Source: Parcubacteria group bacterium (lineage in GTDB: Bacteria; Patescibacteriota; Minisyncoccia; Moranbacterales; UBA2206). Taken from it: 64,000 nucleotides of DNA. The position numbers and the translations under genes were made by a program. Positions 647 to 43,834 of the stretch are shown here, piece after piece. Numbering within the stretch: the stretch's first letter is position 1; each line of letters starts with the position of its first letter. Location: NCBI GenBank assembly GCA_041661275.1, contig JBAZUU010000001.1, forward strand, positions 165,057-229,056, in the 5' to 3' direction. The notes under the pieces were generated by a model. That model ran no database searches. It was given only the letters and a program-made list of their open reading frames with translations, and was not told where the DNA came from.

Positions 647-1372
647 ATGCTCATTTCTACTCTCAAACAAATAGGTCTCACTGAAAACCAGGCTAAAATA
701 TATCTGGCTTGTTTGGAATTGGGCGAATCCTCTGTAAAAGACATCGCTCAAAAAGCAGGGATTAAGAGAACTACTATATATGATTTTATCGACGAGATGT
801 TAAATAGCGGAATTTTAGAGCAAACCGTCCGCAGCAAAAAGAAAAGATATATCGCCACTCCGCCGGAAGAACTGAAATTACTTATCAGAAAAAGAGAAGC
901 CCTGCTTAACCAGATACTTCCGCAATTATCTTCTCTGGATAAATCAAGCCAAGGCAAACCAAGAATCCAATTTTACAGTGGCGCGGATGGTCTGAAAAAG
1001 GTTTACGAAGATTTATTAAATTACAAAAATATTATTGTTTATGGCTGGGCGTCGGAAGATATTCCTGAATTATTTGGGAAAGAATGGACTTTTAACTATG
1101 TGCATATGCGCGTAAAAAGAAATATTGAGGAATGGATCATTTATCCCCGAAGTAAAACAGGCGAGGAATATAAAAAACACGATGAGGAACATAAAAGAAA
1201 ATCGAAAGTAGTCGATCCAAAAAAATATAGGTTGGAAATTGAGATTAATATATATAAAAACAAAATTGCTATGACGTCAGCCAAGGATGAGGTCGGCATC
1301 ATCATCGAATCCACACCGATCGCCAACACTTGGAAAAAAATATTTGAAATGTGTTGGGATAGTTTGAAATAA
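647..1372 (+). CDS. TrmB-family HTH transcriptional regulator
   Basis: N-terminal winged-HTH motif LTENQAKIYLACLELGESSVKDIAQKAGIKRTTIYDFIDEMLNSGIL is typical of PF01978 TrmB. It is a paralog of the 10818..11558 gene. Confidence 0.7.
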   Translation: MLISTLKQIGLTENQAKIYLACLELGESSVKDIAQKAGIKRTTIYDFIDEMLNSGILEQTVRSKKKRYIATPPEELKLLIRKREALLNQILPQLSSLDKSSQGKPRIQFYSGADGLKKVYEDLLNYKNIIVYGWASEDIPELFGKEWTFNYVHMRVKRNIEEWIIYPRSKTGEEYKKHDEEHKRKSKVVDPKKYRLEIEINIYKNKIAMTSAKDEVGIIIESTPIANTWKKIFEMCWDSLK

Positions 1373-6011: not shown

Positions 6012-8558
6012 ATGGCTTACGTTTATTCGCCCAAAAAATCTACTCCTGATTATGCGCGGAAGAAGGTTAATTGGAAAAAGGCTTGGAAATATTTAGGTTA
6101 TCTGTGTATCGCCGGTTTTTTTGTTGTTGCCGGCGTTTTTTTGTTTTTCTATAAAGATCTCCCCAGTCCCGGAAAGCTAAACGACCGTTTTGTGGCCGAG
6201 TCGACCAAAATTTATGACCGCACGGGGACGCATCTTCTCTATGACGTTCACGGCGAAGAAAAAAGGACGCAGATCCCCTATTCGGAAATGCCAGACACCA
6301 TCCGCTACGCCACCATCTCTCTTGAAGATCAGGGATTTTATACTCATGGCGGCGTTGACCTCAAAGGTATCGCTCGCGCGGCCTTGAAAGACGTTTTGCA
6401 CCTGGGAGCAGCGCAAGGAGGATCGACTATTACCCAACAACTCATCAAGCAATCAATGTTGAGCTCGGAGCGAACGATAACCAGAAAAATAAAGGAGGTT
6501 ATATTGGCAATTGAGCTGGAACAAAAATTTTCCAAAGATGAAATTCTGGCTATGTATCTCAATCAGATCCCTTATGGTTCCAATTCCTATGGCATTGAAG
6601 CTGCCGCTCAAACTTTTTTTGGCAAACACGCCAAAGACTTGAATCTAGCCGAATCAGCCCTCCTTGCTTCACTTCCTAACGCGCCTACATATTATTCCCC
6701 CTATGGTTCTCATCCGGAAGCCCTGAAAGCTCGCCAGGAATTAGCTCTCAATCACATGGCCGAATCAGGATATATCACCAAAGAACAAGCTGATGAAGCA
6801 AAAAACGTGGACATTATGTCTGAGTTGCAGCCCAATCGAGAAAACATCAGCGCTCCACATTTTGTGATGTATATCAAAGAATATTTAGAAAAAAAATACG
6901 GGCAAGACACGGTGGAACAAGGTGGACTGAAAGTCTATACCACTCTTGATTGGGACAAACAAATGGCCGCAGAGCAGGCAGTGAAAGATGGGGCGGAAAG
7001 AAACAAAAAATACAAAGCGGAAAATGCTTCTCTTGTTGCTATGGATCCAAAGACCGGGCAAATTCTGGCCATGGTCGGATCAAAAGATTATTTTGATACA
7101 ACAATTGACGGACAAGTGAATGTGGCTATCCGTGACCGACAACCTGGCTCGTCTTTCAAACCATTTGTCTATCTGACTGCTTTTCAAAAAGGCTTCACTC
7201 CGGAAACTATGATCTGGGACGTGGACACTAATTTCAGCACTGATTCCGGAAAAGATTATAATCCAAAAAATTATGACGGAAAAAATAGAGGACCGCTTGA
7301 GATGAAAGATGCTCTCGCCATGTCCCTTAACGTGCCGGCGGTAGAAACACTATATCTCGCCGGCGTCAAAAATTCAGTGGATACTGCCCATAAAATGGGC
7401 ATCACCACTCTCAATCAACCTGATCGTTATGGATTATCTTTGGTCTTGGGCGGAGGAGAAGTAAAACTGCTTGATCATGTTAATGCCTATGCCACACTGG
7501 CAACCGGCGGGGTTCACCACGACAAAGTATCTATTCTGAAAATAGAAGACGGTAAGGGAAGCATATTGGAACAATATAAACCCAATGATGGCAATCGAGT
7601 GATCGATGAAAAATATGTTTCCATGCTCGATTATATTATGTCTACCAATTCCTTGCGCGCTCCGGTTTTTGGAGAAAATAATCCTCTGAAGTTTGACTCC
7701 CGCCCGGTAGCCGCCAAAACTGGAACGACTAACGAATGGCGCGATGGTTGGACGATGGGCTACACGCCATCTTTAGCCGTTGGCGTTTGGGCAGGTAATA
7801 ATAATAATTCCGTTATGGCGCAAGGCGCAGATGGAGTTTATGTTGCCGCGCCAATTTTCCGAGCCTTTATGGATACTGTGCTCAAAAATTATTCCGTAGA
7901 AAAATTCCCGGAATACAAACAAGAAGACACTGGTAAAGATATTTTGGATGGCAAATTTTCTTCCGGAAAAGATGAAATAGAGGTTTGTGAGATCAAAAAA
8001 GATGAATATTGTTTGGCCAACGACACTTGCCCGGATGGCACAAAAGATAAAAAGAAATTTGCCCAAACACATAGCATTCTCTACTACGTCAATAAAGATG
8101 ATCCACGCGGAGACGCACCAAAAGATCCCCAAAAAGATCCGCAATTTGCCAATTGGGAAAAAGCAGTCAAGTCTTATGTCAAAGATCACAAGAAAGATTT
8201 TGGCGGCGATGAAGCGCCGACTGATCAGTGCAAAGCAAGTGATTTTGGAGACTCCGGTTCGTCAGATAGCAGCAGTGTAAAAATCAAAACTACCGTTTCT
8301 ACTCCAAAAGATGGCGACACCATCACTTCTTCACCATTTACCATTTCAGCTCAAGCTGTTTCCGGACACGCCATAACTTACATAACAATTAACATCGATG
8401 GCACAGACGTGTCGGTGGCCAATTCTGATTCAATTTCATATTCCTATACAGTTCCGGATGACAAAAAAAATGCCACACTCAATATCAAAGTAACGGCAGT
8501 TGATAAAAATGATAAGACTGATTCCGATAAGTTAACAGTGAAAATGAATATTCCTTAA
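6012..8558 (+). CDS. class A penicillin-binding protein (PBP1A: GT51 transglycosylase + transpeptidase) with a C-terminal Ig-like extension
   Basis: GT51 motifs EDQGFYTHGGVD and QGGSTITQQL. Transpeptidase SxxK (SSFKP), SxN-region and KTGT motifs. The C-terminal 180 aa are Thr/Ser/Asp-rich and beta-rich. Confidence 0.9.
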   Translation: MAYVYSPKKSTPDYARKKVNWKKAWKYLGYLCIAGFFVVAGVFLFFYKDLPSPGKLNDRFVAESTKIYDRTGTHLLYDVHGEEKRTQIPYSEMPDTIRYATISLEDQGFYTHGGVDLKGIARAALKDVLHLGAAQGGSTITQQLIKQSMLSSERTITRKIKEVILAIELEQKFSKDEILAMYLNQIPYGSNSYGIEAAAQTFFGKHAKDLNLAESALLASLPNAPTYYSPYGSHPEALKARQELALNHMAESGYITKEQADEAKNVDIMSELQPNRENISAPHFVMYIKEYLEKKYGQDTVEQGGLKVYTTLDWDKQMAAEQAVKDGAERNKKYKAENASLVAMDPKTGQILAMVGSKDYFDTTIDGQVNVAIRDRQPGSSFKPFVYLTAFQKGFTPETMIWDVDTNFSTDSGKDYNPKNYDGKNRGPLEMKDALAMSLNVPAVETLYLAGVKNSVDTAHKMGITTLNQPDRYGLSLVLGGGEVKLLDHVNAYATLATGGVHHDKVSILKIEDGKGSILEQYKPNDGNRVIDEKYVSMLDYIMSTNSLRAPVFGENNPLKFDSRPVAAKTGTTNEWRDGWTMGYTPSLAVGVWAGNNNNSVMAQGADGVYVAAPIFRAFMDTVLKNYSVEKFPEYKQEDTGKDILDGKFSSGKDEIEVCEIKKDEYCLANDTCPDGTKDKKKFAQTHSILYYVNKDDPRGDAPKDPQKDPQFANWEKAVKSYVKDHKKDFGGDEAPTDQCKASDFGDSGSSDSSSVKIKTTVSTPKDGDTITSSPFTISAQAVSGHAITYITINIDGTDVSVANSDSISYSYTVPDDKKNATLNIKVTAVDKNDKTDSDKLTVKMNIP

Positions 8559-8564
8559 TAAAAC

Positions 8565-8702
8565 CGTCATCCCGAGTGAAGGCTCAATTCTTATTGAGCC
8601 TGAGTCGAGGGATCTACTAATTGCTATTGCAAGTGCTAATATTTAGTAGATTCTTCGACTTCATTCCCCCGTCAAGACGGGGTCATTCCGCTCAGAATGA
8701 CG
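8565..8702. repeat. MITE-like palindromic element, family 1 copy B
   Basis: ccgtcatcccgagtg ... cgctcagaatgacg. Inner gagtcgagggatct ... agattcttcgact. Begins 7 bp after the PBP1A stop and supplies the first in-frame ATG (8697) of the uppP ORF. Confidence 0.75.
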
Positions 8703-9533
8703 AATGCCATTTTTATGACCTTATTCCACGCCATCATCCTCGGCCTTATCCAGGGTTTCGGAGAATTTCTCCCCATCTCTTCTTCCGGGCATCTCATTCT
8801 TGCGCCCTGGCTTTTGAATTTCCCCGATCCAGGGCTGTCCTTTGATGTGGCGTTGCATTTCGGAACATTGATTGCTGTCGTTTTATATTTTTGGAAAGAC
8901 TTTCTGGAAATAATATGCATAGCGTTTTCCTCCTCTCCCTTTGGGAGAGGATGTCGCGTCTTCGCGACAGGAGAGGGTTCAAAATATAACAAAAATATTT
9001 TCTGGCTCCTCGTCATCGCCACCATCCCCGGCGCTCTGTTCGGATTTCTTCTCGAAAGCAAAGCGGAAACAATTTTCCGAAACCCTTTGTTAATAGCAGG
9101 CACATTATCTATTGTGGGGCTAATATTATATCTAGCCGACAAATATGCTTCACATAAAAGAAATATTAACGAGCTAACAAAAAAAGATGCCACGCTTATC
9201 GGCCTCTCCCAAGCTTTCGCCATTATTCCTGGCGTTTCTCGCGCCGGCGCAACTATTACGACTGGATTATTTTTAGGCCTTGATCGCGTGTCCGCCGCCC
9301 GATTTTCATTTCTCCTTTCCGCCCCAATCATTCTTGGCGCAACCCTTGTTAAGATAAAATATATCGCTGCCGCTGGCACACTGGAAATTGTCGCCATCCT
9401 CACCGCCGCCCTCTCCGGCTACTTCGCCATCAGTTGGATGCTAAAATTCATCGAGCGTGTCAGTTACAAAGTTTTCTTTTGGTATAGATTGGCATTGGCA
9501 GTCATCATTGTCCTGGTCTGGTTTTTAAAATAA
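8697..9533 (+). CDS. uppP: undecaprenyl-diphosphate phosphatase UppP/BacA
   Basis: GFGEFLPISSSGH and PGVSRAGATITTGL are BacA signatures. An alternative start is at 8715. Contains an in-frame 51-bp repeat insert (see 8929-8979). Confidence 0.85.
   Translation: MTNAIFMTLFHAIILGLIQGFGEFLPISSSGHLILAPWLLNFPDPGLSFDVALHFGTLIAVVLYFWKDFLEIICIAFSSSPFGRGCRVFATGEGSKYNKNIFWLLVIATIPGALFGFLLESKAETIFRNPLLIAGTLSIVGLILYLADKYASHKRNINELTKKDATLIGLSQAFAIIPGVSRAGATITTGLFLGLDRVSAARFSFLLSAPIILGATLVKIKYIAAAGTLEIVAILTAALSGYFAISWMLKFIERVSYKVFFWYRLALAVIIVLVWFLK
8929..8979. repeat. family 2 multi-hairpin element inserted in-frame within uppP
   Basis: cctcctctccc-tttg-ggagagg / gtcgcg-tctt-cgcgac / aggagaggg. It is the reverse complement of 1459-1512 except for a compensatory change in the middle hairpin. 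Length 51 bp (17 codons), encoding about SSSPFGRGCRVFATGEGS in a loop where E. coli BacA is about 12 aa shorter. Confidence 0.65.
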
Positions 9534-9575: not shown

Positions 9576-9881
9576 ATGAGCAAAGAGGAAATAAAAAAAG
9601 CCCTTAAGGAAGCCATTGAAGTCGATCCGAATAGAGAGGCTATTTTAAAAGTGGCCTTATTTGGTTCTCACGTTTACGGCTCGCCGCGACCCGATTCTGA
9701 TGTGGATATTTTAATTGAATTCTCTCCTGAATATTCTATCGGCTTTTTCAAATTTTTTGACACGCAATATAATTTTGAAAAATTCATAGGCAAAAAGGTT
9801 GATTTGCTTACTCCGGAAGACATAAGTCATTTCTTCAGAAATGAAGTTTTGGCTCGTGCGGAAACAATTTATGAAAGATAA
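9576..9881 (+). CDS. MntA-type nucleotidyltransferase antitoxin
   Basis: The LFGSHVYGSPRPDSDVDILIEF motif is the polymerase-beta-like NTase signature. Confidence 0.8.
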   Translation: MSKEEIKKALKEAIEVDPNREAILKVALFGSHVYGSPRPDSDVDILIEFSPEYSIGFFKFFDTQYNFEKFIGKKVDLLTPEDISHFFRNEVLARAETIYER

Positions 9882-10203
9882 TAAATTTTACATTGGGCAC
9901 ATTGCCGAAGCTATTTCCTCTATAGAAGAATACCTTAATAATGTTGATTTTCTGTCATTTTCCCAAAATAAAATGCTCTTTGATGCGGTAGTAAGAGAAT
10001 TGGAAATAATAGGCGAGGCATCAAACAACATAGGAGATTCATTTCAGAATGAATACCCCGACATTCCATGGAGAAAAGTCATTGGAATGAGAAATAAAAT
10101 TACTCACGAATACTTCGCCGTAAATAAAAAAGTCGTCTGGGACACATGCAAGGACGACCTGCCTGAACTAAAAACTATAATTAGCTCCATCTTGGCTCAA
10201 TAA
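9871..10203 (+). CDS. HepT-type (DUF86) toxin
   Basis: RELEIIGEASNNI ... IPWRKVIGMRNKITHEY is the HepT RX4HXY-type motif. Overlaps mntA by 11 bp. Confidence 0.8.
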   Translation: MKDNKFYIGHIAEAISSIEEYLNNVDFLSFSQNKMLFDAVVRELEIIGEASNNIGDSFQNEYPDIPWRKVIGMRNKITHEYFAVNKKVVWDTCKDDLPELKTIISSILAQ

Positions 10204-10225
10204 AAGTAGGAACACCAGACAAGCA

Positions 10226-10248
10226 AAGGCCGCAAAAGCCTTTTTTTA
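10226..10248 (+). terminator. rho-independent terminator after hepT
   Basis: ggc-cgcaaaa-gcc hairpin followed by T7. Confidence 0.5.
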
Positions 10249-10270
10249 TTTTCGTAAATTCGTAGACAAT

Positions 10271-10301
10271 AAAAAACCTGCCCGAATGATTTCGAGCAGG
10301 T
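10271..10301 (-). terminator. rho-independent terminator after the 10310..10567 gene
   Basis: Minus-strand RNA ccugcucgaa-auca-uucgggcagg forms a 10-bp stem followed by U6. Confidence 0.6.
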
Positions 10302-10309
10302 GCAAGTGG

Positions 10310-10567
10310 TTAAAGAACCGAGATTAGAATGGCCCATTTATGCCATTCTTCTTTTATTATGTAGGGGGTTAACTCTACCCAATTCCCTCCCCACTGACCA
10401 AACGCTCTTGCTATTGTCATTTCTTCGCCAGGGTATCGCTTCAGAAAATCCACTACCGAAACCCAGGTGGACTCTCCTGGCCTAAGCTCCGACGCAGGTT
10501 TCACGTCGGTATTCTCTATTTCATTCCAATAGCGTTCGGTCTTTCCGTCACCAACTTTAAATCTCAT
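10310..10567 (-). CDS. hypothetical small protein (85 aa)
   Basis: ORF with its own terminator. No recognizable motif. Confidence 0.4.
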   Translation of the reverse strand: MRFKVGDGKTERYWNEIENTDVKPASELRPGESTWVSVVDFLKRYPGEEMTIARAFGQWGGNWVELTPYIIKEEWHKWAILISVL

Positions 10568-10756
10568 TGTAATCTCCTTATTCAGGTTAGAATTAACTCA
10601 GATCATTCACTTTTCAAACAACTCTCCAATTCCATCATAACTACCCATTATACCTCAAAATCACCAACTTATCAATAGTTGTTGTAATTTATAACTATAA
10701 TCATTCTTGATTTCCGCCTGGTATTCTGCTATTTTATGGCTTTATTATGCTGTATA

Positions 10757-10815
10757 TTGACATAATTACAAAGGCTTGCTATAATAGCATTATCTGTTGT
10801 CATAAATATCGACAA
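10757..10815 (+). promoter_or_regulatory. sigma70-type promoter (TTGACA-17-TATAAT) plus operator candidate upstream of the second trmB-like gene
   Basis: TTGACA at 10757-10762 and TATAAT at 10780-10785 with a 17-nt spacer. TGTCATAAATATCGACA (10799-10815) shares AAATATCGACA with the 620-634 site. ATG at 10818. Confidence 0.5.
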
Positions 10816-10817
10816 TT

Positions 10818-11558
10818 ATGGAAATTCAGAACACCCTCAAAAAACTAGGTCTCGACGATGACGAAATAGCTGTCTATACGGCCACCTTGTCATTGGGACC
10901 GAGCCTAGTCACAAGAATTGCTAAGGAATCAGGCGTTAAACGCACTACGGTATATTTAGTGGCGAAATCTTTAATGGAGAAAGGGTTGCTGGGAGAATAT
11001 AAAACTCGCCACGGAATGCATTTGTCCGCTCAATCCCCTGATTATCTTTTGACCAAGATTGAGGAACAAAAAAAAGAAGTGGAGGAAATTATTCCCCAAC
11101 TCAAAGCGCTGACCAAAAAAGAAGCGCATCGCCCGCAAGTGAAATATTTTGAAGGGAAAGAAGGATATTTTACGGTGGCCGAAGATACACTGGAAAAACA
11201 TGCTACAGAAATTTTGTGGTTGGGAAATCCAAAAGAATTATATAGCATCATCGGGAAGAAGTGGGATGATGAATATTATGTGCCCAAAAGAATGGAGCGG
11301 AAAATAAAAATGAAGGCCTTGCTTTTTGAAGATGATTGGTCAAGAGATATAAAAAAGACTGATGAAAATTTTTTGAGGCAAACTAAATTTCTGCCAAAAG
11401 ATTTTCCCTTCCATTCAACGCAACTAATTTACCAAAACAAGGTGGCCTATTTCAGCTCGCAAAAAGAACTGATCTGTGTCCTCATTGAAAGCGCTGATCT
11501 GGCCGCCATGGAACGGGCCAAATTTGAAATGTTGTGGAAAAATGCTATTATAAACTAA
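10818..11558 (+). CDS. TrmB-family HTH transcriptional regulator (paralog)
   Basis: LGLDDDEIAVYTATLSLGPSLVTRIAKESGVKRTTVYLVAKSLMEKGLL. Same architecture as 647..1372. Confidence 0.7.
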   Translation: MEIQNTLKKLGLDDDEIAVYTATLSLGPSLVTRIAKESGVKRTTVYLVAKSLMEKGLLGEYKTRHGMHLSAQSPDYLLTKIEEQKKEVEEIIPQLKALTKKEAHRPQVKYFEGKEGYFTVAEDTLEKHATEILWLGNPKELYSIIGKKWDDEYYVPKRMERKIKMKALLFEDDWSRDIKKTDENFLRQTKFLPKDFPFHSTQLIYQNKVAYFSSQKELICVLIESADLAAMERAKFEMLWKNAIIN

Positions 11559-11562
11559 ACAT

Positions 11563-11970
11563 ATGGAAACATTTCACGAAAATATAGCAACTCCGGAAAG
11601 ACAACACTCGGGCGTGGAATTAACAGCCAAACAAAAAGAGGAGGGCTTGATATTTGGCCTGACAAAATTGGACAACATTAAAGACTCTCTCCAAAAATAC
11701 CCATCAGCACTTTTGGAAGAATACGGCCTGGATTATATCCAGGAAAAATGCCAGGATTTGATCGCTCTAATCAAAAAAGACCCTGCCTTATTTAAAAACA
11801 TTGATCTTCAACATCAAATTGGAAACTTTGAACCGTGCGTTGCAATGCTGGATCATGTTATGAAACATCCATATAAGGAAAATATGAGAGAGAGCCTGAA
11901 AAAGGAAGTGTTTAATCTAAGCTTACAATTAGATGAATTGCTTTCCCTGGAAAAAGAAACTATCCATTAG
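11563..11970 (+). CDS. hypothetical protein (135 aa), likely co-transcribed with trmB-like gene
   Basis: Starts 5 bp after the trmB paralog stop. Predicted helical and acidic. Confidence 0.4.
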   Translation: METFHENIATPERQHSGVELTAKQKEEGLIFGLTKLDNIKDSLQKYPSALLEEYGLDYIQEKCQDLIALIKKDPALFKNIDLQHQIGNFEPCVAMLDHVMKHPYKENMRESLKKEVFNLSLQLDELLSLEKETIH

Positions 11971-12017
11971 ATAACAAAAGGAACCCCTCTGGTTCTTTTT
12001 TGATTGATAAACATTTT

Positions 12018-12356
12018 CTATTTTTCCTGTGAAATAATTTTTGAAACATTCTCGGCAAGTTCGGGAATGTTTTTTCGACAAGTTTCCCAAACCGTTTCCA
12101 CAATAACTCCGAAGTATTCATGTATTAGAACGTTTCTCATATCAATCATATCCCGCCATGGTATCTCCGGATGCGCTTCGCGGAATTCGGAGCTGACATT
12201 ATTAGCCGCTTCGCCAATTATTTCCAATTCCCGGATAATCGCGCTTACCATCATTCTATTTTTATCAAACTCGGCACGATCAGCGCCACTGCTAAAATTA
12301 ATGATATTATTAACAGAATCATTAATATGCTTCAGATAAGTTAGATCATTTCTCAT
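12018..12356 (-). CDS. HepT-type (DUF86) toxin, second copy
   Basis: RELEIIGEAANNV ... IPWRDMIDMRNVLIHEY. Confidence 0.8.
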   Translation of the reverse strand: MRNDLTYLKHINDSVNNIINFSSGADRAEFDKNRMMVSAIIRELEIIGEAANNVSSEFREAHPEIPWRDMIDMRNVLIHEYFGVIVETVWETCRKNIPELAENVSKIISQEK

Positions 12357-12651
12357 AAAAAGTTTCGGCTTTAGCTAAAACCTCGTCTCGAAAATATTTA
12401 CTCAAACCTTCGGGAGTCAGAAGATCAATTTTTTTGCCACAATAATCTGAAAAATTCCGTTGAATCTGGACATATTCAAACAACCCTATCCTGGCATTAG
12501 GCCTAAATTCTACAAGCACATCAATATCGCTATCCGGATGCGGTTCCCCATAGGCATAAGAGCCAAAAATTGACGCCTTAATAATATCCTCTTTATGAGG
12601 ATCTTTTTCTATAGCCTCCACTAATTTTTTCTTTATTTCTTCTTTACTCAT
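12346..12651 (-). CDS. MntA-type nucleotidyltransferase antitoxin, second copy
   Basis: IFGSYAYGEPHPDSDIDVLVEF. About 60% identical to the 9576 copy. Confidence 0.8.
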   Translation of the reverse strand: MSKEEIKKKLVEAIEKDPHKEDIIKASIFGSYAYGEPHPDSDIDVLVEFRPNARIGLFEYVQIQRNFSDYCGKKIDLLTPEGLSKYFRDEVLAKAETFYEK

Positions 12652-12697
12652 AACCCTAATCTAACATAAAGTAATACAATTTTCAACTTAAAACTTT

Positions 12698-12979
12698 TTA
12701 TTTCGTCCTAATTTTCAAAACCGCGCCTTCACCCAATTCTTCATTCATCTTGCGCATTATTTTTTCCTTATTAAGCCAAAGCTCGCTGGCCCAAGCAGGC
12801 GATTCGCAGCGAACTACCAAAACTTTTTTTCCAAAATAGTCCACTTGGAATTTTGACGCGCCGATCAGGCCAAATTCTTTTTTGATTATTTTGTTAAAAA
12901 TATAAAAGACGTCCTTATTGTCAAAAGAAAACTTCCTTAATTCTTTTCGCTTATCAAAAAGATTTTTGAGAGATCTCAT
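12698..12979 (-). CDS. DUF721/DciA-like protein
   Basis: About 93 aa with a C-terminal SPAWASELWLNKEKIMRKMNEELG motif typical of DUF721. Lies close to dnaN/dnaA. Confidence 0.5.
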   Translation of the reverse strand: MRSLKNLFDKRKELRKFSFDNKDVFYIFNKIIKKEFGLIGASKFQVDYFGKKVLVVRCESPAWASELWLNKEKIMRKMNEELGEGAVLKIRTK

Positions 12980-13776
12980 TGTTTTGCAAACCCGTCTAAA
13001 TATTTAGGCAATTCTAAAATCCATTTGGCTTGCTCCGGATAGAATAGGAATCTTTCCACGTCTTTAGCCGCTTGTTTTAAATCCAACCCGGAAATAATAG
13101 TTATTAATTCTGCTACCAATTCTTGGCGATTATTAATATTAATATTTTTTTCTTGCAAAATCTCATAATTCGGTTCGATGTCTTTTTGCGCCAAAAACCA
13201 AACGATATCATAGAAATCTCGCCCCTTTTGATATGGCCGCAGTTTCAAAGCGATAATTTTTTGGGCGAAGAGAGTTGGCAGCGTGTTAATTAACACGGGA
13301 AAACGCTCATTAAAACTATCAATAAATTTTGTTTCAGTAGTAGTAGCTTTATAAGGAGTATGGTCAATTTCAAACTTAATTAAAAATTTTTCGTCTTTCA
13401 TAGAACTCAGCTCGAATTCCCTCAGCACATCTTTAAATTTAATAAAAAGAATGTAGATATTTTCCGTGGTCTTGGTCCTTGCATCAATGGCAAAACCGAG
13501 AAGACTCAGGCTCTTGGTCAAATCTTTTTCCAGGGCATCGATGTTGAAGCCGTCTTTTTTAACCAAGTCGAAATCAAGATCCTCTGAAAATCGTGGAATT
13601 TCATGGATAAATCGAAGGCTCGTGCCACCCAAAAAAGAGACTGCGTCATTATAATCGCTTGATGACAGCGCTTTTAGGATTTGGGTTTGCAAATATTCTC
13701 GAAGAACGTCTTTTTCCCGCCAGGGAATATTCTTGCTCTCACAATAGTTTTTAAAATATTTTTTATCCGGCAACAT
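12976..13776 (-). CDS. AbiEii/AbiGii-family nucleotidyltransferase toxin (DUF1814)
   Basis: The LGGTSLRFIHEIPRFSEDLDFDL motif is the AbiEii NTase signature. Confidence 0.7.
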   Translation of the reverse strand: MLPDKKYFKNYCESKNIPWREKDVLREYLQTQILKALSSSDYNDAVSFLGGTSLRFIHEIPRFSEDLDFDLVKKDGFNIDALEKDLTKSLSLLGFAIDARTKTTENIYILFIKFKDVLREFELSSMKDEKFLIKFEIDHTPYKATTTETKFIDSFNERFPVLINTLPTLFAQKIIALKLRPYQKGRDFYDIVWFLAQKDIEPNYEILQEKNININNRQELVAELITIISGLDLKQAAKDVERFLFYPEQAKWILELPKYLDGFAKQ

Positions 13777-14392
13777 AAAATTTTATAAAATTATTAGTTA
13801 ATAACGAAACTTTCTTATTTTTAAACACGCGAGAAAACTTAATTAATCTATTTTTATTATACTTAAATTCGTCATTAAATCTATAGCCTTCGAATTGAAG
13901 TCGACTGCCGTCTAAAATATTTCGATTGAGATAAAAAAAATCAACCAATGCCTTTTCCGGCAAGGCCAAATTAAAAGAAATGTTAAATTCTTTCTTTTTT
14001 ATAGTTTCATACCCGCCAAAGGCTTCTTTTTTAATTTTTTGATATGAAAATTTTCCAAAATCATTTTTAACAGTCTTTGTCTCTCGGCTGGTTACAGAAG
14101 TGGTGGTAAAAACGGCTTCCGGAATAATGCCATAATAGCCTAGAGCTGATTCCAGGCTAACATACGAAGGCTCATAAATTTTCGAAGCTAGAGTGATAGG
14201 ATCTACGGCATATCTAAGATAGCCTAGAATATATAAGCCTTTTCCAAGTTGAAGAATATAACCTTTTTTCCGCCAATTTTCCAGATTATTGAGAAACGAC
14301 CGGCTAAACCCTGCTCCTAAAAGTAATTTTAGGTCTCTGGTGCTAAAAAGCGGGAATTCCTCCATTTTTTGCCTGAATTCGATATAATTCAT
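13763..14392 (-). CDS. AbiEi-family antitoxin/transcriptional regulator
   Basis: Lies upstream of and overlaps AbiEii. The N-terminal region fits an AbiEi-like wHTH. Confidence 0.55.
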   Translation of the reverse strand: MNYIEFRQKMEEFPLFSTRDLKLLLGAGFSRSFLNNLENWRKKGYILQLGKGLYILGYLRYAVDPITLASKIYEPSYVSLESALGYYGIIPEAVFTTTSVTSRETKTVKNDFGKFSYQKIKKEAFGGYETIKKKEFNISFNLALPEKALVDFFYLNRNILDGSRLQFEGYRFNDEFKYNKNRLIKFSRVFKNKKVSLLTNNFIKFYVAG

Positions 14393-14505
14393 TGTCTTAA
14401 TTCATCATTTTTAGTGAATTATGACATTATTATATCATGACGATACGATTTTTGTCAAGTAAAAATCTCGCCTAGGCGAGATTTTTACTTTCATTTAATC
14501 ATGTT

Positions 14506-15663
14506 TTAATTCTTTATCGGCATAACGATATAGGTATAATCGCCCAAAACCTCGCCACTTTTTTCATCAATCTCTTTTATCCCCACAGGTGTCGCTGCGG
14601 AATTAAGAAGAATAGCTACTTGTTGAGTGGAGACAGTATTAATTCCGTCTAAAAGATATCTAGAGTTAAAAATTACCTCTTGAGATGGTCCTGTAATGTC
14701 AAATTTAAGTTCAGTGGAGTTTTCTCCCGCTTCCACTGACTTAGCGCCCACTATTATTTTCTTGGCGCCAGCGTCAATTTTGAGCGAAATTTCACTAGTC
14801 TTTCCGGAAGAAAAAATACTAGCCATCTTCACTGCGTTCTGGATTGAGTTTTTATCCCCAACTACTCGAGTCTTAAATTCTTTAGGCATAATATGTTTAT
14901 ATTCCGGATATTTTCCATTAATAAGGCGAGAAACCAGCCGCGCCGAATCCACTTCAAAAAATATTTGCCCCTCTTCAATGGCGATCTTTACCTCCTTGTC
15001 GTCATCAGCCGGAATAATCCGTACCAATTCCTGAAAAGTAGCAGCTGGAACAATAATATTCCCTCTTTTTTCAGAGAATGCTTTGTAATTTTCCATATTA
15101 CAGTTTTTTTCGTCAATTTTTAGTCTATATTCTGAAAGACGAAAACTATCAGTGGAGGCAAAAAATAATTCCCTGGCGCCAAAAATTATATTAATTCCAG
15201 TCAGTTCTGGCCGGGCTTCATTAAAAGCCACTGAAATCATTATTTTAGAAAGAATGTTTTTCAGCTCTATCCCTGGAATTTTCAGTAAAAATTCTGTGCT
15301 TTTTCTAGGGATAAGTGGAAAATCAGCTGCTGATATTCCCTTAATAGCCGCCTTTACTGAGCCACTTTTAATTTTAAGGCTCTGATCGGCCATTTCAATA
15401 GAAACATTTTCTCCTTGAGGTAAATTAGCAGAAAAATTACTAATTAGTCGCGCAGGAATTGTTATTTTTCCCTCTTTTTCTACCTTTGCCCCAACCTTTG
15501 CCACTATTCCTATTTCTAAATTAGTAGCAGAAAGCCTTAACCTACTTTTATCTGTTTCAAAAAGGATATTATTTAATATAGGGAGGGTATTTTGTTTAGA
15601 AACTACTCTTTCGCAAAAGTATATAGCCTTTTTAAAATTCTCTTGAGTACAAATTAATTTCAT
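14506..15663 (-). CDS. dnaN: DNA polymerase III beta sliding clamp
   Basis: 385 aa with the three-domain clamp pattern. Immediately downstream of dnaA. Confidence 0.9.
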   Translation of the reverse strand: MKLICTQENFKKAIYFCERVVSKQNTLPILNNILFETDKSRLRLSATNLEIGIVAKVGAKVEKEGKITIPARLISNFSANLPQGENVSIEMADQSLKIKSGSVKAAIKGISAADFPLIPRKSTEFLLKIPGIELKNILSKIMISVAFNEARPELTGINIIFGARELFFASTDSFRLSEYRLKIDEKNCNMENYKAFSEKRGNIIVPAATFQELVRIIPADDDKEVKIAIEEGQIFFEVDSARLVSRLINGKYPEYKHIMPKEFKTRVVGDKNSIQNAVKMASIFSSGKTSEISLKIDAGAKKIIVGAKSVEAGENSTELKFDITGPSQEVIFNSRYLLDGINTVSTQQVAILLNSAATPVGIKEIDEKSGEVLGDYTYIVMPIKN

Positions 15664-15954: not shown

Positions 15955-17322
15955 CTAAACGGCATATAGGTGTTCTTTAAGAAGGGTGAGTTCTTCTGAT
16001 AACTTTTCATCTGTTTTAAGGGCTTTAGATATCTTTTCATAAGCGTGGATAGCGGTAGTATGATCACGACCGCCTAGTTTTTCTCCTATTCCCGGGTAGG
16101 AATATTGAAGTTCACTTCTCATGAGATACATAGCAATTTGTCTGGGCTTTACCACTTCCTGCTTTCGGTTTTTAGCGATTAAATCATTAGGACTTATGTC
16201 ATAAAAGTCAGAAATCACCTTGATTATGTGTTTGTGAGATATTCCCTTTTTTTTGCCACTGGAGATAAGTTCCGACAACACACCGGCCACGTAATCAAGG
16301 GTAATCGCGGTTTTTGTTAGCTGCGCCGAAACAGAAACCCTGTTTAGCGCTCCTTCCAGCTCACGAATATTATTCTTAACGTTTTGAGCAATAAATTCCA
16401 GAGCGGAATCATCCACATCTATCCCGTCATCTGTAGCTTTTTTGCGCAAAATCGCTACTCTGGTCTCAAAATCAGGGCGCGACACATCAGCGATCATTCC
16501 TCCTTCAAAGCGGGAGCGTAGTCTTTCCTCGAGAATTTGAATAGCCTTAGGCGCCCGGTCAGAAGAAAGCACAATTTGCTTATTTAGCTGGTAAAGATGG
16601 TTAAAAATATGGAAAAACTCTTCCTGGGTCTTTTCTTTTCCGGAGATGAATTGGATATCATCAATGATCAGAAGGTCTATTTTTTGATAATATTCCTTAA
16701 ATTGGGTAATTTTCTGGTTTTTTATAGAATCAATCAGCTCGCTGGTAAACCGTTCAGAGGTTATGTATTTAACCCGTGTATCACCACCGTTTTTCAAAAT
16801 TTCATTGCCAATAGACTGAATGAGATGAGTTTTTCCCAGACCCACTCCGCCATAAATGAAAAGCGGGTTGTAGACGTGACCTAAGCCTTGAGAAACAGCA
16901 AAACAAGCGGCTTTCGCCAGCTCATTACTCGACCCTACTACGAAATTATCAAAGATATACTTGGGGTTAAGGTTGCTTTCCTGATGAATAGGGCTTTTTT
17001 TAGCGGAAAAAACCATATTTTTAGGAGCGATAATAGCGTCAACACGAGGTTGTTCCTGGATAGTTTCTGATTCACTAGTGGCGGAAATGAGACAAGAAAC
17101 GGACTTTATACTTTCTTCCATGTTTCGCAGAGCCCGCAAAATATGCAGATTATATTTATTTTCCAGCCATTCCTTGGCAAAACCATTAGGAACACTGATC
17201 ACCGCATGACCGTCAGCAATAGAAAGAATAGAGGTATTTTTAAACCAGGTGATAAAGTTAGCCTTGGAAATAGAAAGTTCTATCTCTCCCAGGGCTGATT
17301 GCCACAGTTCCTCATTGGTCAT
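15955..17322 (-). CDS. dnaA: chromosomal replication initiator DnaA
   Basis: The AAA+ Walker A motif GGVGLGKTHL and a C-terminal DNA-binding domain ending ...TAIHAYEKI. Confidence 0.95.
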   Translation of the reverse strand: MTNEELWQSALGEIELSISKANFITWFKNTSILSIADGHAVISVPNGFAKEWLENKYNLHILRALRNMEESIKSVSCLISATSESETIQEQPRVDAIIAPKNMVFSAKKSPIHQESNLNPKYIFDNFVVGSSNELAKAACFAVSQGLGHVYNPLFIYGGVGLGKTHLIQSIGNEILKNGGDTRVKYITSERFTSELIDSIKNQKITQFKEYYQKIDLLIIDDIQFISGKEKTQEEFFHIFNHLYQLNKQIVLSSDRAPKAIQILEERLRSRFEGGMIADVSRPDFETRVAILRKKATDDGIDVDDSALEFIAQNVKNNIRELEGALNRVSVSAQLTKTAITLDYVAGVLSELISSGKKKGISHKHIIKVISDFYDISPNDLIAKNRKQEVVKPRQIAMYLMRSELQYSYPGIGEKLGGRDHTTAIHAYEKISKALKTDEKLSEELTLLKEHLYAV

Positions 17323-17637
17323 TTGTTTGTTAACCCCCCCCGGTATAATTGTTCAAGATGATAAAAAGATGAAGTAGTTTGGTAAAATCTAGTATAGCAC
17401 AGAAAATTTCTCGCGTCTTCTGTTTTTGTGGATAAGGTTGTTGATAAGATGTGTGGATCTCTACGAATTACGAATTTAGTATGAATATATTAATGTTATA
17501 ACCGTTAACCATTTAAAAAGCAAGAGCCGTTTTTTGTTAGTATAGTAGCGGCTAGCAATTAGTAAAGAATTCATTGACTTTTGATACTGCAGCTGGTAGA
17601 ATTTTAAGTAATTGTTAATAACATATTTTTAATTTTT
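17323..17637. promoter_or_regulatory. candidate oriC: DnaA-box cluster and AT-rich region between dnaA and rpmH
   Basis: TGTGGATAA (17427-17435, perfect reverse-complement R box), TGTTGATAA (17439-17447) and TGTGGATCT (17452-17460). AT-rich 17461-17520. rpmH promoter TTGACT-17-TAGAAT at 17575-17603. Confidence 0.6.
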
Positions 17638-39060: not shown

Positions 39061-39179
39061 GTCTGAACCACTGATTTTCACATGAATTCACATGATTTCA
39101 CTGATTTTTATTATTAAAATTGTTGTTATTTTTTATTCATGTGTAATCAGGATAATCAGTGCGAATCAGTGGTTCAGAC
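39061..39179. repeat. intercistronic palindromic element (family 3, copy a) overlapping the virB4 TGA stop
   Basis: Arms gtctgaaccactgatt (39061-39076) and aatcagtggttcagac (39164-39179). The interior carries CACNTGATT / AATCANGTG motifs around an AT-rich centre. Confidence 0.7.
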
Positions 39180-40982
39180 TTCTTCCGCTAATTCTTTTTT
39201 GGCTGCTTCAATTTCCAGAAGTTGCGCCGGATCAGTGGTGATTATCTGATCTTCGGAATATGAAGCGATGACTTTGATAGCGACATGTTTGGTGCCGGCA
39301 AAAAATATTCCCTCTCCAACGTTACTTTCGAGAAGCAAAAATTTTTCCTGATCAGTAAGATAGAATGTTTCCGTGATGACATCAATGCCGGCCGGTGATT
39401 GTTTCAAGAGAAGCTGGAGTGATGAGTTGGTGACGATCGCTTTTCCGTAGCGTGATGATAAAAAGTCGTTGACATCCTGGGTGATGGTGGTGAGGCCGGT
39501 GTAATATTTGCGGCAGCGCTTGGCGATGCCGAAAAGAAAAGATGCCGCGTCTTCATATTTCATCATTACCCAGGCTTCATCGACCAAAACCAATCTTTTA
39601 GTAAAATTAGTGCGCATTTCGTTCCAGACGAACTGCAAAACGATATACATAGCCACCGGTCGCATCTCCTCTTCCATATCGCGCAGGTTAAAAACCATCA
39701 GCTGATTATCCACCTTGATGTTGGTGGTGTTATTGAGAAATCCGGCAAAAATTCCTTCGGTGTATTTTTCCAGGCGTATGGCCAAATTTTCTCCGCCATC
39801 CATCGACCGCAAAACTTCCCAAAGATCGGTCATAGTGGGAAATTGATCAGGGGTAAGCAAATTGAAATTGGCTTGCGGCGTGATGTCACGGACGGAATAT
39901 GTTTCACGGATAGCCCGGTCAAGGATAGAATCCTCTTCCGGGGTGATGGATCCAAGCATAATGTGGAGAAGTCCGAGAAGATGAGCGATGTTGTTTCGCA
40001 AAATATCTTCCGGATCATCATCTTCTTTCAGGCGCGGCAGATCAAACGGGTTAATGTGATTTTGGGAACTCAAAGAAATCTTGATGAATGTCCCGCCGAC
40101 CGAATCACACAAGTGCTTATATTCATTTTCCGGGTCAATAATGATGACGTTCACCCCCAGCATCAGAGAGCGCAGAGTTTCCAGTTTGATAGTATAACTT
40201 TTTCCGGCGCCGGATTTGGCAAAAACCACCATATTGGCATTTTCCAGTTGAAACCGGTCGAAGATGATGAGACTGTTGTTGTGGCGGTTGATGCCATAAA
40301 GAATCCCGCGGTTGTCAGAAAGAGTTGAGGAAACGAAAGGAAAGGTAGTGGAAAGCGGAGCGCTGTTCATCGATGTGCCGATATCCAGTTCGTCATTGGC
40401 GATAGGGAGAGAGGAAACAAATCCTTGCTCTGTCTTGAAAACAGCCGGTTTTACATATACCAATTGAGCTTCCAAAATTGCCTCGATGGATTTGGCCAGT
40501 TCCGTCACTTCTTTTTCTGTTTCCCCGTAAGCAGTGATATAGAGGCCGAAGCGGAAAAATTTTTCCGTCCCTTGTTGCAATTTATCCCGCAGCTCGTCAA
40601 TATCTTTGACGGCTGTATCCAGCGCCGGATCGCGAATCATTCCTTTTTCCTGCTCGATATGCACTTCCGATTCCACTTGCGTGGCTGTTTTTTTGAGAGT
40701 TTTCAGGATGTCATAAGTATCGATGGGATGGATAAACATGGAAATATCGATGGGCATATCGATATTGATTATCGGGGAGAACCAGGCGCTTTGCAAGTAT
40801 CTCGGATAAGCGATAACGCCGATGGTGGAAACGAAAAGCTCTCCCACGCGGATATAGCGAGGCATCACTTTTATGGCCGAAGGAGCGATGAGATCAGAAA
40901 GTCTGGCCACGCCTTCCTGGTAGTATTTCTCACTGGCGATTATCTCGTCTTCTATCTCGTTTTTTTTGGAAAATAATGACAT
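39174..40982 (-). CDS. VirB4/TrbE-family T4SS ATPase, C-terminal ATPase portion
   Basis: Walker A FAKSGAGKSY, DEAW Walker B and the TQ...NDF region. The preceding region matches the VirB4 middle domain. Confidence 0.9.
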   Translation of the reverse strand: MSLFSKKNEIEDEIIASEKYYQEGVARLSDLIAPSAIKVMPRYIRVGELFVSTIGVIAYPRYLQSAWFSPIINIDMPIDISMFIHPIDTYDILKTLKKTATQVESEVHIEQEKGMIRDPALDTAVKDIDELRDKLQQGTEKFFRFGLYITAYGETEKEVTELAKSIEAILEAQLVYVKPAVFKTEQGFVSSLPIANDELDIGTSMNSAPLSTTFPFVSSTLSDNRGILYGINRHNNSLIIFDRFQLENANMVVFAKSGAGKSYTIKLETLRSLMLGVNVIIIDPENEYKHLCDSVGGTFIKISLSSQNHINPFDLPRLKEDDDPEDILRNNIAHLLGLLHIMLGSITPEEDSILDRAIRETYSVRDITPQANFNLLTPDQFPTMTDLWEVLRSMDGGENLAIRLEKYTEGIFAGFLNNTTNIKVDNQLMVFNLRDMEEEMRPVAMYIVLQFVWNEMRTNFTKRLVLVDEAWVMMKYEDAASFLFGIAKRCRKYYTGLTTITQDVNDFLSSRYGKAIVTNSSLQLLLKQSPAGIDVITETFYLTDQEKFLLLESNVGEGIFFAGTKHVAIKVIASYSEDQIITTDPAQLLEIEAAKKELAEEV

Positions 40983-41013
40983 AATTTTTTTGAATAGTAT
41001 TCCTTAAGTAACC

Positions 41014-41151
41014 CCGTCATTCTGAGCGGAATGACCCCGCCTTGGCGGGGGAATGAAGTCGAAGAATCTGCTAAATATTAGCACCAGTGATAATATATAG
41101 TAGATCCTTCGACTACGTCCAATAAGAATTGGACTTCGCTCAGGATGACGG
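41014..41151. repeat. MITE-like palindromic element, family 1 copy C, between the two virB4 parts
   Basis: ccgtcattctgagcg ... cgctcaggatgacgg. Inner gaagtcgaagaatct ... agatccttcgact. Carries an internal ccccgcc-tt-ggcgggg hairpin. Confidence 0.75.
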
Positions 41152-41159
41152 TTGTTTTT

Positions 41160-41846
41160 TTAGCGTATTTCCATCAAACTCGAATCCTTCAATTCTATCG
41201 AATTATATATTTCCGGATTATATGAATTAAACATCAACTCAATGAGTTCCTGCGTTTTCAAGGGAGCGATGCGCAGGCCGATTCCGGCCAGGGCGGCGAT
41301 AATGTGATCCACTCTTTGGAACAGCTGACTTTTGTATGTCTCAAAATTTTCCCGCTTTTCCAGAATGTTCTTTTTCGGATTGAACATATTGAAGAGATTG
41401 GAGAAAAAACCCTTACTTTCATTCTCAATGGGAGAAAACGGAACGATGATATAGAAATTCTTGTCCATAATGTTGGTGGAAGCGATGAGTTGCCCGATGA
41501 AGTTTTTATATTCCGAGATCTGCATCCGCAAAAGTTCATTGGGCTGTTTCTTCTCGTTTTCCGTGAGGAAATTGAGATAATTTTCCATATTGAGTTTTCG
41601 GGAACTAACCAGGATTTGCAATGGAAAATCGACGGAATTGAGAAAATTCTGATATTGATTAATGATCGCTTCCTGCTCGTCGGTGGATTTCAGTTCGAAA
41701 TTGATGGAAGATACGGCCAGGACACTGCGCAACGCGCCGCTTTTGAGCATAATGACATCTTCTTTCACTTCCGCCACGTCTAAAAATTGCTGGGTAGCGG
41801 CATTGGTTGGTTTTTTGGATATTTTGTTGGAATGTAGGATTTCCAT
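41160..41846 (-). CDS. VirB4 N-terminal domain protein (split VirB4)
   Basis: FLDVAEVKEDVIMLKSGALRSVLAVSSINFELKSTDEQEAIINQYQNFLNSV matches the CagE/TrbE/VirB N-terminal domain pattern. 229 + 602 aa approximates a full-length VirB4. Confidence 0.55.
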   Translation of the reverse strand: MEILHSNKISKKPTNAATQQFLDVAEVKEDVIMLKSGALRSVLAVSSINFELKSTDEQEAIINQYQNFLNSVDFPLQILVSSRKLNMENYLNFLTENEKKQPNELLRMQISEYKNFIGQLIASTNIMDKNFYIIVPFSPIENESKGFFSNLFNMFNPKKNILEKRENFETYKSQLFQRVDHIIAALAGIGLRIAPLKTQELIELMFNSYNPEIYNSIELKDSSLMEIR

Positions 41847-41852
41847 AAAAAG

Positions 41853-41948
41853 TCTCGAACCACTGATTAGCACATGATTATCCTGATTACACTTGATTTT
41901 TAAAATTCAGTGAAATCAAGTGTAATCAGTGATAATCAGTGGTTCTGA
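41853..41948. repeat. intercistronic palindromic element (family 3, copy b)
   Basis: Arms tctcgaaccactgatt and aatcagtggttctga. The upstream gene's TGA stop (41936-41938) lies within the arm. Confidence 0.7.
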
Positions 41949-42331
41949 TTTAGTATTTTACTCAACTCTTCTATCTTATCTCCGCTTATCTTCTTCCTCT
42001 CATGTATTATAGCATTTTTGTCTTTTCCTTTTTTCGGAATCACTATTTTTTCCGGCAAGCGATGCCAGACATACATTCGCGGGCGGAAGATATAGAAGAC
42101 GGAAGACGAAAGAAAAGCAATGAGCGGTTGGCCATACGGGCGGTAAAATGCCATGGCGCTGAAAACCGCGGCGATTATGATGGCGGCGATGATGAAGCCT
42201 TGAGTATCGAGAAAATTCCAAAAAACCAGCGCCACAACGCCACCCAATCCCAACCAGCCCAGCTGTTTGGCGGTGAGTGGTCCTACTATTTTATCTTCAA
42301 TGTCTAAAAATTGTGGAACGTTAAAAAGCAT
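41936..42331 (-). CDS. VirB3/PrgI-like small membrane protein
   Basis: 132 aa with two TM helices (LGWLGLGGVVALVFWNF; FIIAAIIIAAVFSAMAF), positioned directly upstream of virB4 as virB3 usually is. Confidence 0.45.
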   Translation of the reverse strand: MLFNVPQFLDIEDKIVGPLTAKQLGWLGLGGVVALVFWNFLDTQGFIIAAIIIAAVFSAMAFYRPYGQPLIAFLSSSVFYIFRPRMYVWHRLPEKIVIPKKGKDKNAIIHERKKISGDKIEELSKILNQNH

Positions 42332-42335
42332 AGCT

Positions 42336-42496
42336 GTCCGAACCACTGATTATCACTGATTTTCCTGATGACACGTGATTAGTGTCAGTGGCATTATTTG
42401 ATTAATATTTTTTATATATTACTTTACTTCTAAACTTTTTGCTCCGAAACAAATCAGTGAAATCATTTTAATCACGTGAGAATCAGTGGTTCAGAC
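42336..42496. repeat. intercistronic palindromic element (family 3, copy c)
   Basis: Arms gtccgaaccactgatt (42336-42351) and aatcagtggttcagac (42481-42496). Interior has cacgtgatt, cactgatt and aatcagtg motifs. The upstream TGA stop at 42491-42493 is in the arm. Confidence 0.7.
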
Positions 42497-43792: not shown

Positions 43793-43834
43793 ATTTTTTA
43801 ACTGATAATTTTTTAAACTAGTATAATGGAAGTA

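Follow-up and report, generated by a model that had tools for sequence, protein, structure and literature searches.

The DNA analyzed here is a 64,000-nucleotide (nt) stretch from a Parcubacteria group bacterium (contig JBAZUU010000001.1, positions 165,057–229,056), referred to below as the window. Close to dnaA, it carries two pairs of genes of the HepT/MntA toxin-antitoxin (TA) family in inverted orientation, and between these pairs lie orf85, a gene for a TrmB-like regulator, and orf135. An AbiEi/AbiEii pair is found nearby. The arrangement raises the question of whether the inverted pairs and the genes they bracket form a composite cassette, as proposed in an earlier sequence-only reading of this DNA, or whether they came together in another way. 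We consider it probable that three conventional TA modules have come to occupy two variable intergenic slots beside dciA, near the replication origin (oriC) of a Moranbacteria chromosome. The genes between the HepT/MntA pairs are predicted to be resident in the chromosome and not to be carried by a mobile cassette.

Gene order near the replication origin

The open reading frames (ORFs) of the region and their profile matches are as follows (aa, amino acids).

8697–9533, plus strand: uppP, undecaprenyl-diphosphatase (65–78% identity to relatives by tblastn; the equivalent on a relative's contig has a BacA Pfam match)
9576–9881, plus strand: predicted MntA1 antitoxin (PF01909, E 3e-12; PF18765, E 4e-12)
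9871–10203, plus strand: predicted HepT1 toxin (PF01934, E 9e-30; longest possible ORF from 9841)
10310–10567, minus strand: orf85, a singleton ORFan
10818–11558, plus strand: TrmB-like regulator, 246 aa (PF01978, E 8.6e-13)
11563–11970, plus strand: orf135, beginning 4 nt past the TrmB stop codon
12018–12356, minus strand: predicted HepT2 toxin (PF01934, E 9e-28)
12346–12651, minus strand: predicted MntA2 antitoxin (PF18765, E 4e-14)
12698–12979, minus strand: dciA (DUF721; PF05258, E 6e-11, 42.9 bits, cutoff 24)
12976–13776, minus strand: predicted AbiEii toxin (PF08843, E 1.8e-20; PADLOC AbiEii, E 8.6e-56)
13763–14392, minus strand: predicted AbiEi antitoxin (PADLOC AbiEi, E 3.3e-50, residues 1–205, full length)
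14506–15663, minus strand: dnaN
15955–17322, minus strand: dnaA

Read from the dnaA side, the ORF listing and profile searches give the order dnaA-dnaN-abiEi-abiEii-dciA-mntA2-hepT2. The genes named in the sequence-only reading are real and lie where it placed them, apart from the start of HepT1, which most likely falls at 9871 (110 aa) because this start yields the same 11-nt overlap as in module 2. That reading also had the AbiE pair directly following the second HepT/MntA module, with a dciA-like gene beyond it; this order was incorrect, as dciA (12698–12979) lies between MntA2 and AbiEii. Its description of a TA island beside the origin was borne out. The cumulative GC skew reaches its minimum at ~15–16.5 kb of the window, DnaA boxes are found upstream of dnaA (17427–17447), and the modules occupy segments that vary among relatives. 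There is no further HepT, MntA, or AbiE gene elsewhere in the 64-kb window, and the three TA modules within 4.8 kb therefore constitute a genuine local cluster. An Rfam scan returned chance-level matches only.

Variable slots on either side of dciA

The proteins of the window were compared by tblastn with the DNA of relatives, represented by 65 dnaN loci of GTDB species representatives. By DnaN, the closest genomes are those of Moranbacteria (Candidatus Moraniibacteriota). The ancestral order in this group appears to be dnaA-dnaN-dciA, convergent with PBP1A. Matches to dciA occur in 57 relatives (27–74% identity, mostly full length) downstream of dnaN, and dciA, a core replication gene, divides two variable slots.

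The first slot lies between dnaN and dciA. The gap between these genes is below 310 nt (median ~40) in 40 distant relatives, and it is 0.5–8.6 kb in 11 insert-bearing relatives whose DnaN is 61–70% identical to that of the window. Most of what these 11 inserts contain is housekeeping (trxB in 8 of the 11, along with gdh, thioredoxin, PEBP, TrmB paralogs, and others), and the slot is filled by abiEi-abiEii in the window. The second slot lies between dciA and uppP, the latter being its conserved left border. In 10 of 12 relatives, 21–224 nt separate dciA from uppP or PBP1A, compared with 3.1 kb in the window. In one relative (L005), which has the order dciA-uppP-PBP1A, just 140 nt separate dciA from uppP, and the whole 3.1-kb block is absent. 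The slots flanking dciA thus appear to tolerate insertions in this sub-lineage. No HepT, MntA, or AbiE homolog was found in 78 relatives' loci (~1.2 Mb).

The thioredoxin reductase gene (trxB) is directly upstream of dciA in the GTDB relatives closest to the window (L005–L018 and L069). The 64-kb window has no trxB homolog.

orf135 and orf85

Whether the bracketed genes belong to the HepT/MntA pairs or to the chromosome can be judged from where their homologs lie. The small proteins encoded by orf85 and orf135 appear in NCBI under the names hypothetical protein WCV59_01920 and WCV59_01930. The orf135 protein matched only itself in a word-indexed search of 5.8 billion proteins, and an exhaustive HMMER search of 1.84 billion representatives identified three distant homologs (P0066, P0067, and P0068; E 2e-7 to 1.5e-4). 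All three are located after uppP, and dciA comes next in both cases in which the contig extends that far. P0067 follows a UppP gene (75% identical to that of the window) in the same direction and converges with a DciA gene (74%), and P0068 begins 1 nt past a UppP gene (78% identical). P0066 lies on a 7.7-kb JGI contig (3300075153) in the order PBP1A, UppP, three small minus-strand ORFs, TrmB (246 aa), P0066, a 249-aa ORF, and DciA. No HepT/MntA match was recorded near any of the three. The pairing of a TrmB gene with the 135-aa gene, for which conserved synteny had been suggested as a check, therefore recurs in one relative (P0066) and is absent from the other two, in which the orf135 homolog follows uppP without a TrmB gene. 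Because these homologs hold the same position without HepT/MntA, orf135 appears to be native to the uppP-dciA interval in this lineage and to evolve quickly.

An alignment of the four family members has an invariant cysteine (C63), a GNF motif (residues 87–89), and a tyrosine (Y54) common to all, and each protein ends in histidine (...T/A-I/L-H). The family is 33–41% identical as against 74–78% for the flanking UppP and DciA, which indicates fast evolution with few fixed residues. Neither of two metagenome scans, run with the family alignment and with P0066 respectively, yielded loci with further relatives. The AlphaFold2 (AF2) model of orf135, an acidic protein, is an all-helical bundle with a disordered N-terminus (predicted local distance difference test (pLDDT) 76.8), for which no significant fold match was found in the PDB. 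Less likely still than the capture of dciA considered below, the position-fixed orf135 family could be an uncharacterized lineage-specific partner of the cell-wall genes (PBP1A-uppP) or of the replication gene dciA.

The orf85 protein matches itself alone among 5.8e9 proteins and has no Pfam, PADLOC, NCBIfam, or PHROG match. It is acidic and Trp-rich, and is predicted to be mostly β-structure. Its single-sequence AF2 model reached a pLDDT of 58.9, too low for a fold search. Even at permissive settings, no credible Pfam or PHROG match emerged for orf85, orf135, or the homologs. The gene has an AAGGAG ribosome-binding site and the following two signals, and is probably a real orphan gene.

10647–10675, minus strand: promoter-like site of orf85 (TTGATA, 17-nt spacer, TATAAT; 11/12)
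10276–10301, minus strand: strong terminator-like hairpin 3' of orf85 (11 bp stem, then a T-run)

The TrmB-like regulator and its 21-nt element

The TrmB-like protein matches PF01978 (48.4 bits, cutoff 25.6) through an N-terminal winged helix-turn-helix (wHTH). It has 63 homologs, and those that are named all come from Parcubacteria/Patescibacteria. The closest sequence match in the PDB is TrmB 3qph (residues 6–136, E 1.7e-4), in the N-terminal half only. Like the Pyrococcus/Thermococcus TrmB of that structure, the protein has an N-terminal wHTH, here along with a palindromic element at its own promoter. Unlike it, the protein is 246 aa long instead of ~340, and its C-terminal half lacks detectable similarity to the sugar-binding domain. 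This C-terminal domain, present in TrmB and TrmBL1, was not detected by the 3qph and NCBIfam TrmB matches, which cover the N-terminal 108–146 residues, and the NCBIfam TrmB equivalog model scores 38 against a cutoff of 650.

The gene has its own consensus promoter, as noted in the sequence-only reading. A palindrome is found just downstream of it.

10757–10785, plus strand: sigma-70-type promoter of the TrmB-like gene (TTGACA, 17-nt spacer, TATAAT; 12/12; extended -10 TG)
10795–10815, plus strand: 21-nt imperfect palindrome TGTTGTCATAAATATCGACAA, between the -10 box and the ATG of the TrmB-like gene

The sequence TGTTGTCATAAATATCGACAA is unique in the window, in which 0 matches are expected by chance. 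It occurs, at the same position, upstream of six of six TrmB ortholog loci (62–88% identity), either exactly or with a 1-nt difference in five of them; the sixth (L072) has the variant TGTTGTCATAAATCACAACAA, which keeps the palindrome TGTTGT-N8-ACAACA. In the relatives' loci the element is found upstream of TrmB orthologs only. Its positions are as follows.

L001, 233–250: 21-nt element
L002, 7874–7891: 21-nt element
L004, 2952–2969: 21-nt element
L072, ~57–77: 21-nt element (variant)
L073, 7929–7946: 21-nt element
L075, 2295–2312: 21-nt element

This conservation suggests that the 21-nt palindrome is likely the TrmB auto-operator. The genes around the orthologs (compared at 60–88% identity) are far less constant. 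All five orthologs with readable neighborhoods have different downstream genes, none of which is an orf135 homolog. The neighbors observed are listed below.

L002 and L078: DUF433/PIN pair
L004: RAYT-like gene
L072: MNT and HEPN-like pair
L073 and L076: radical-SAM, methyltransferase, and ATP synthase genes
L075: ORF6N and small ORFs
118-kb contig of P0009: Fpg, Pol I, and a second TrmB

With the promoter and 21-nt element constant and the neighbors varying among six ortholog loci, the TrmB gene appears to be an autonomous unit. Genes foreign to a TA island might be expected to keep housekeeping neighbors and never TA or defense genes, and this was found in part: TrmB orthologs have housekeeping neighbors in some genomes and TA neighbors in others. 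A role for TrmB as a dedicated TA or defense regulator was considered and rejected, the ortholog contexts being too mixed.

Several further features were observed in this family. It has several paralogs in Moranbacteria, of which two are in the window and many in relatives. The second copy in the window (647–1372, plus strand; PF01978, E 1e-14) is ~30% identical to the one at 10818–11558, and TrmB paralogs are frequent in relatives' loci, several of them inside the dnaN-dciA and dciA-PBP1A gaps (L006, L007, L009, L012). The pair in L072 (857–1609, minus strand), convergent and 3' of a TrmB ortholog of 72% identity, consists of a nucleotidyltransferase (GS...DVD) and a 134-aa HEPN-like protein. 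In L002 (~7892–8000) and L073 (~7947–8000), the 21-nt element is separated from the start codon by a common hairpin-like, GC-rich insert (AACCCCACCCAACCTCCCCTTT...GGGAGGGG), and L004 has a different insert of ~95 nt at this place; the inserts are possibly leader structures or small mobile repeats. In the collection of papers searched, none was found on TrmB-like regulators in the Candidate Phyla Radiation (CPR).

The HepT/MntA modules

In type VII TA systems of the HepT/MntA family, MntA inactivates the RNase HepT by tri-AMPylating the tyrosine of a HepT motif (PMC7641770). Both modules contain the two motifs that define these systems, GSX10DXD and RX4HXY (PMC7641770). The first is at residue 30 in MntA1 (GSHVYGSPRPDSDVD) and MntA2 (GSYAYGEPHPDSDID), and the second at residue 74 in HepT1 (RNKITHEY) and HepT2 (RNVLIHEY). 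The genes of each module are co-oriented, with the antitoxin gene upstream and an mntA/hepT overlap of 11 nt. An mntA gene upstream of and overlapping hepT, and the small size of the proteins (101 and ~110 aa), are likewise features of Shewanella oneidensis SO_3166/SO_3165 (PMC7641770), and the protein families (PF01909/PF18765 and PF01934) are those of type VII systems. Unlike characterized HepT/MntA systems, the ones described here are two diverged, inverted copies in a CPR chromosome and are known from sequence. Both pairs are predicted to be conventional type VII TA modules.

The modules are 1.8 kb apart. MntA1 and MntA2, both of 101 aa, are 59% identical, and their N-termini are the same over 8 residues (MSKEEIKK). 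HepT1 and HepT2 are 42% identical, and hence the figure of ~60% protein identity given in the sequence-only reading applies to the antitoxins and not to the toxins. HepT homologs occur on more than 1,400 plasmid records. Among these, a HepT from Ca. Fervidibacter matches HepT1 at 51% identity, and a HepT from Synechocystis matches HepT2 at 46%. Since these matches are at or above the mutual 42%, HepT1 and HepT2 appear to be separate members of the family and not the products of a recent duplication. A global nucleotide alignment of module 1 with module 2 gives 58% identity, and no inverted repeat at the DNA level joins the two. A short inverted repeat (9589–9605/10235–10251) was evaluated as a boundary of module 1 and rejected as an A/T-rich chance match lying partly inside coding sequence. 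Each hepT gene is followed by a hairpin.

10225–10243, plus strand: terminator-like hairpin 3' of hepT1
11981–11995, no strand: hairpin between the convergent orf135 and hepT2, likely a bidirectional terminator

The abiE operon and dciA

AbiE has been described as a bicistronic, autoregulated type IV TA/abortive infection (Abi) system (PMC3985639, PMC7319586). In the window, abiEi comes first and overlaps abiEii by 14 nt, and an overlapping bicistronic operon with abiEi first is also the layout in Streptococcus agalactiae (PMC3985639, PMC7319586). As in AbiE systems, AbiEi has an N-terminal wHTH, AbiEii belongs to the DUF1814 nucleotidyltransferases and contains the GG...DLD motif (here GG...RFSEDLDFD), and a strong promoter lies directly upstream of the operon. 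The PADLOC-type screen suggested by the sequence-only reading gave full-length matches to AbiEi and AbiEii, and none to orf85. The Pfam score of AbiEi (PF13338, 24.2 bits) is just below the cutoff of 25.

Unlike the operon of S. agalactiae, the one in the window is inserted between dnaN and dciA, with an essential replication gene as its apparent third cistron. The stop codon of abiEii overlaps the start codon of dciA as ATGA (12976–12979), and two signals are found between dnaN and abiEi.

14429–14458, minus strand: consensus promoter (12/12) upstream of abiEi
14457–14490, no strand: perfect 17+17-nt palindrome directly 3' of dnaN, likely the intrinsic dnaN terminator

The palindrome, whose RNA fold has an energy of -24.6 kcal/mol (z = -7.35), abuts the -35 box of the abiE promoter. 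It is the combination of dnaN terminator, adjacent 12/12 promoter, and ATGA overlap that makes dciA look like a third abiE cistron. In relatives, dciA is likewise butted against its upstream gene, which is dnaN, trxB, or gdh, and dciA may simply have no promoter of its own. That the abiE operon has captured dciA is, in our estimate, doubtful.

Weighing the explanations

The explanation we favor is built on the gene identities, catalytic motifs, operon geometry, slot variability, orf135 position, and conservation of the operator-like element observed above. According to it, the dnaN-dciA slot would have received abiEi-abiEii, and the dciA-uppP slot the two diverged HepT/MntA modules and the singleton orf85. 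The HepT/MntA modules would have been acquired separately, or duplicated long ago, on each side of a pre-existing TrmB-orf135 unit, and it is because the pairs settled on either side of this older unit that the genes between them look like bracketed cargo. The toxicity, neutralization, autoregulation, and any phage-defense role of the modules are assigned by analogy with characterized families. On this basis, MntA would oligo-AMPylate the tyrosine of RX4HXY and neutralize its cognate HepT, and free HepT would cleave mRNA and arrest growth. AbiEi would restrain the nucleotidyltransferase toxin AbiEii and also repress the operon promoter. For the TrmB-like protein, the 21-nt palindrome at the transcription start is the probable site from which it represses its own consensus promoter, and orf135, which starts 4 nt past the TrmB stop codon and would be co-transcribed, would be under the same control.

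A composite mobile cassette, in which the inverted HepT/MntA pairs act as arms that move or stabilize orf85, TrmB, and orf135 as one unit, would account for the inverted modules on either side of the three genes and for the absence of the whole block between dciA and uppP in L005. The likeness to a composite transposon or TA-stabilized island thus extends to related inverted modules flanking genes and to a segment missing in some relatives, and mobile DNA typically carries TA modules along, as the plasmid records of HepT homologs illustrate. The likeness ends at the arms, which are not sequence-identical, and at mobility. None of the 10 genes encodes a transposase, integrase, or recombinase Pfam domain, tRNA genes are absent from the window, comparison of the region's DNA with plasmids and phages gave no match, and a viral-contig scan with TrmB found none. 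Moreover, neither HepT is closer to its partner than to HepTs of other phyla, TrmB orthologs occur with other neighbors, and the central gene, orf135, is position-fixed across relatives at a chromosomal site with no HepT/MntA match nearby. We therefore regard a composite cassette as very improbable. An ancient in-situ inverted duplication of one HepT/MntA module, followed by divergence that prevented cross-neutralization and conferring no cassette function, fits the common architecture of the modules and the fact that they are each other's only homologs in the window. The divergence of the HepTs, each of which is matched as well or better by a protein from an unrelated phylum, speaks against it, as do the flanking genes of the relative that shares TrmB-orf135, which have no recorded Pfam match. 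We judge such a duplication to be unlikely.

The sequence-only reading had also put forward orf135 and orf85 as candidate regulator-associated effectors, and TrmB with orf135, and possibly orf85, could on this idea be a new regulator-plus-effector defense or TA module, with TrmB as an island-associated regulator comparable to those that adjoin many defense systems. The 4-nt spacing of the two genes under one promoter, the recurrence of the pair in one relative, and the TrmB orthologs that adjoin DUF433/PIN (L002, L078), MNT and HEPN-like (L072), or RAYT-like (L004) genes are in keeping with it. However, two of the three orf135 homologs follow uppP without a TrmB gene, TrmB orthologs occur without orf135 beside Fpg, Pol I, ATP synthase, and radical-SAM genes, and orf85 has no homolog. 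The 21-nt element is found solely upstream of TrmB itself, there is no PADLOC match beyond weak helix-turn-helix similarity, and the orf135 model is a generic helical bundle. There is very little likelihood, in our view, that these genes form such a module.

Several observations weigh against the accumulation of conventional modules around resident genes, which we nevertheless prefer. The NCBIfam equivalog scores for HepT/MntA are 37–46 bits against a cutoff of 60 (45 bits for the MntA_antitoxin model on MntA1), and TAA_AbiEi matches AbiEi (E 7e-13) under its cutoff; with scores below the curated cutoffs, these HepT, MntA, and AbiEi proteins are family members and not close orthologs of characterized proteins. 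Only three orf135 homologs exist, and the ORFs of no assigned family (197, 65, 135, and 249 aa) on the contig of P0066 could be undetected TA or defense genes. The identical MntA N-terminus and the 11-nt overlap leave some room for an old in-situ inverted duplication. GC content was also considered as a sign of foreign DNA but had to be discarded, as the TA genes (0.33–0.37) do not stand apart from dnaN/dciA (0.36).

Other features of the window

A PrgI-family protein (PF12666, E 3e-10) is encoded at 41936–42346 (minus strand) among ORFs of 433–670 aa, and the cluster that contains it (39174–45847) is possibly type IV secretion or conjugation-like. Three accessory-type genes are also present.

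45942–46313, minus strand: 23S-rRNA-intervening-sequence protein (PF05635)
57199–57576, minus strand: UPF0102/NERD nuclease-like protein
62400–62897, minus strand: NYN-domain protein

Implications

The TA modules of this locus appear to be further members of well-known TA families, found here in a CPR genome. They indicate that, in small CPR genomes, hot spots directly beside oriC can collect several TA/Abi modules. They also call for caution in naming islands or cassettes from sequence alone, as genes that look like TA-bracketed cargo can turn out to be a resident pair flanked by independent insertions. Two by-products of the analysis are a conserved promoter-plus-operator unit for a TrmB-like regulator family with several Moranbacteria paralogs, and the tiny, lineage-specific orf135 family fixed between uppP and dciA. 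With dciA as an apparent third cistron, the AbiE module may be hard to lose. Should the operon indeed have captured dciA, the supply of DciA would depend on a TA promoter autoregulated by AbiEi, the module would be effectively impossible to lose, and helicase loading at oriC would be coupled to the state of an abortive-infection system.

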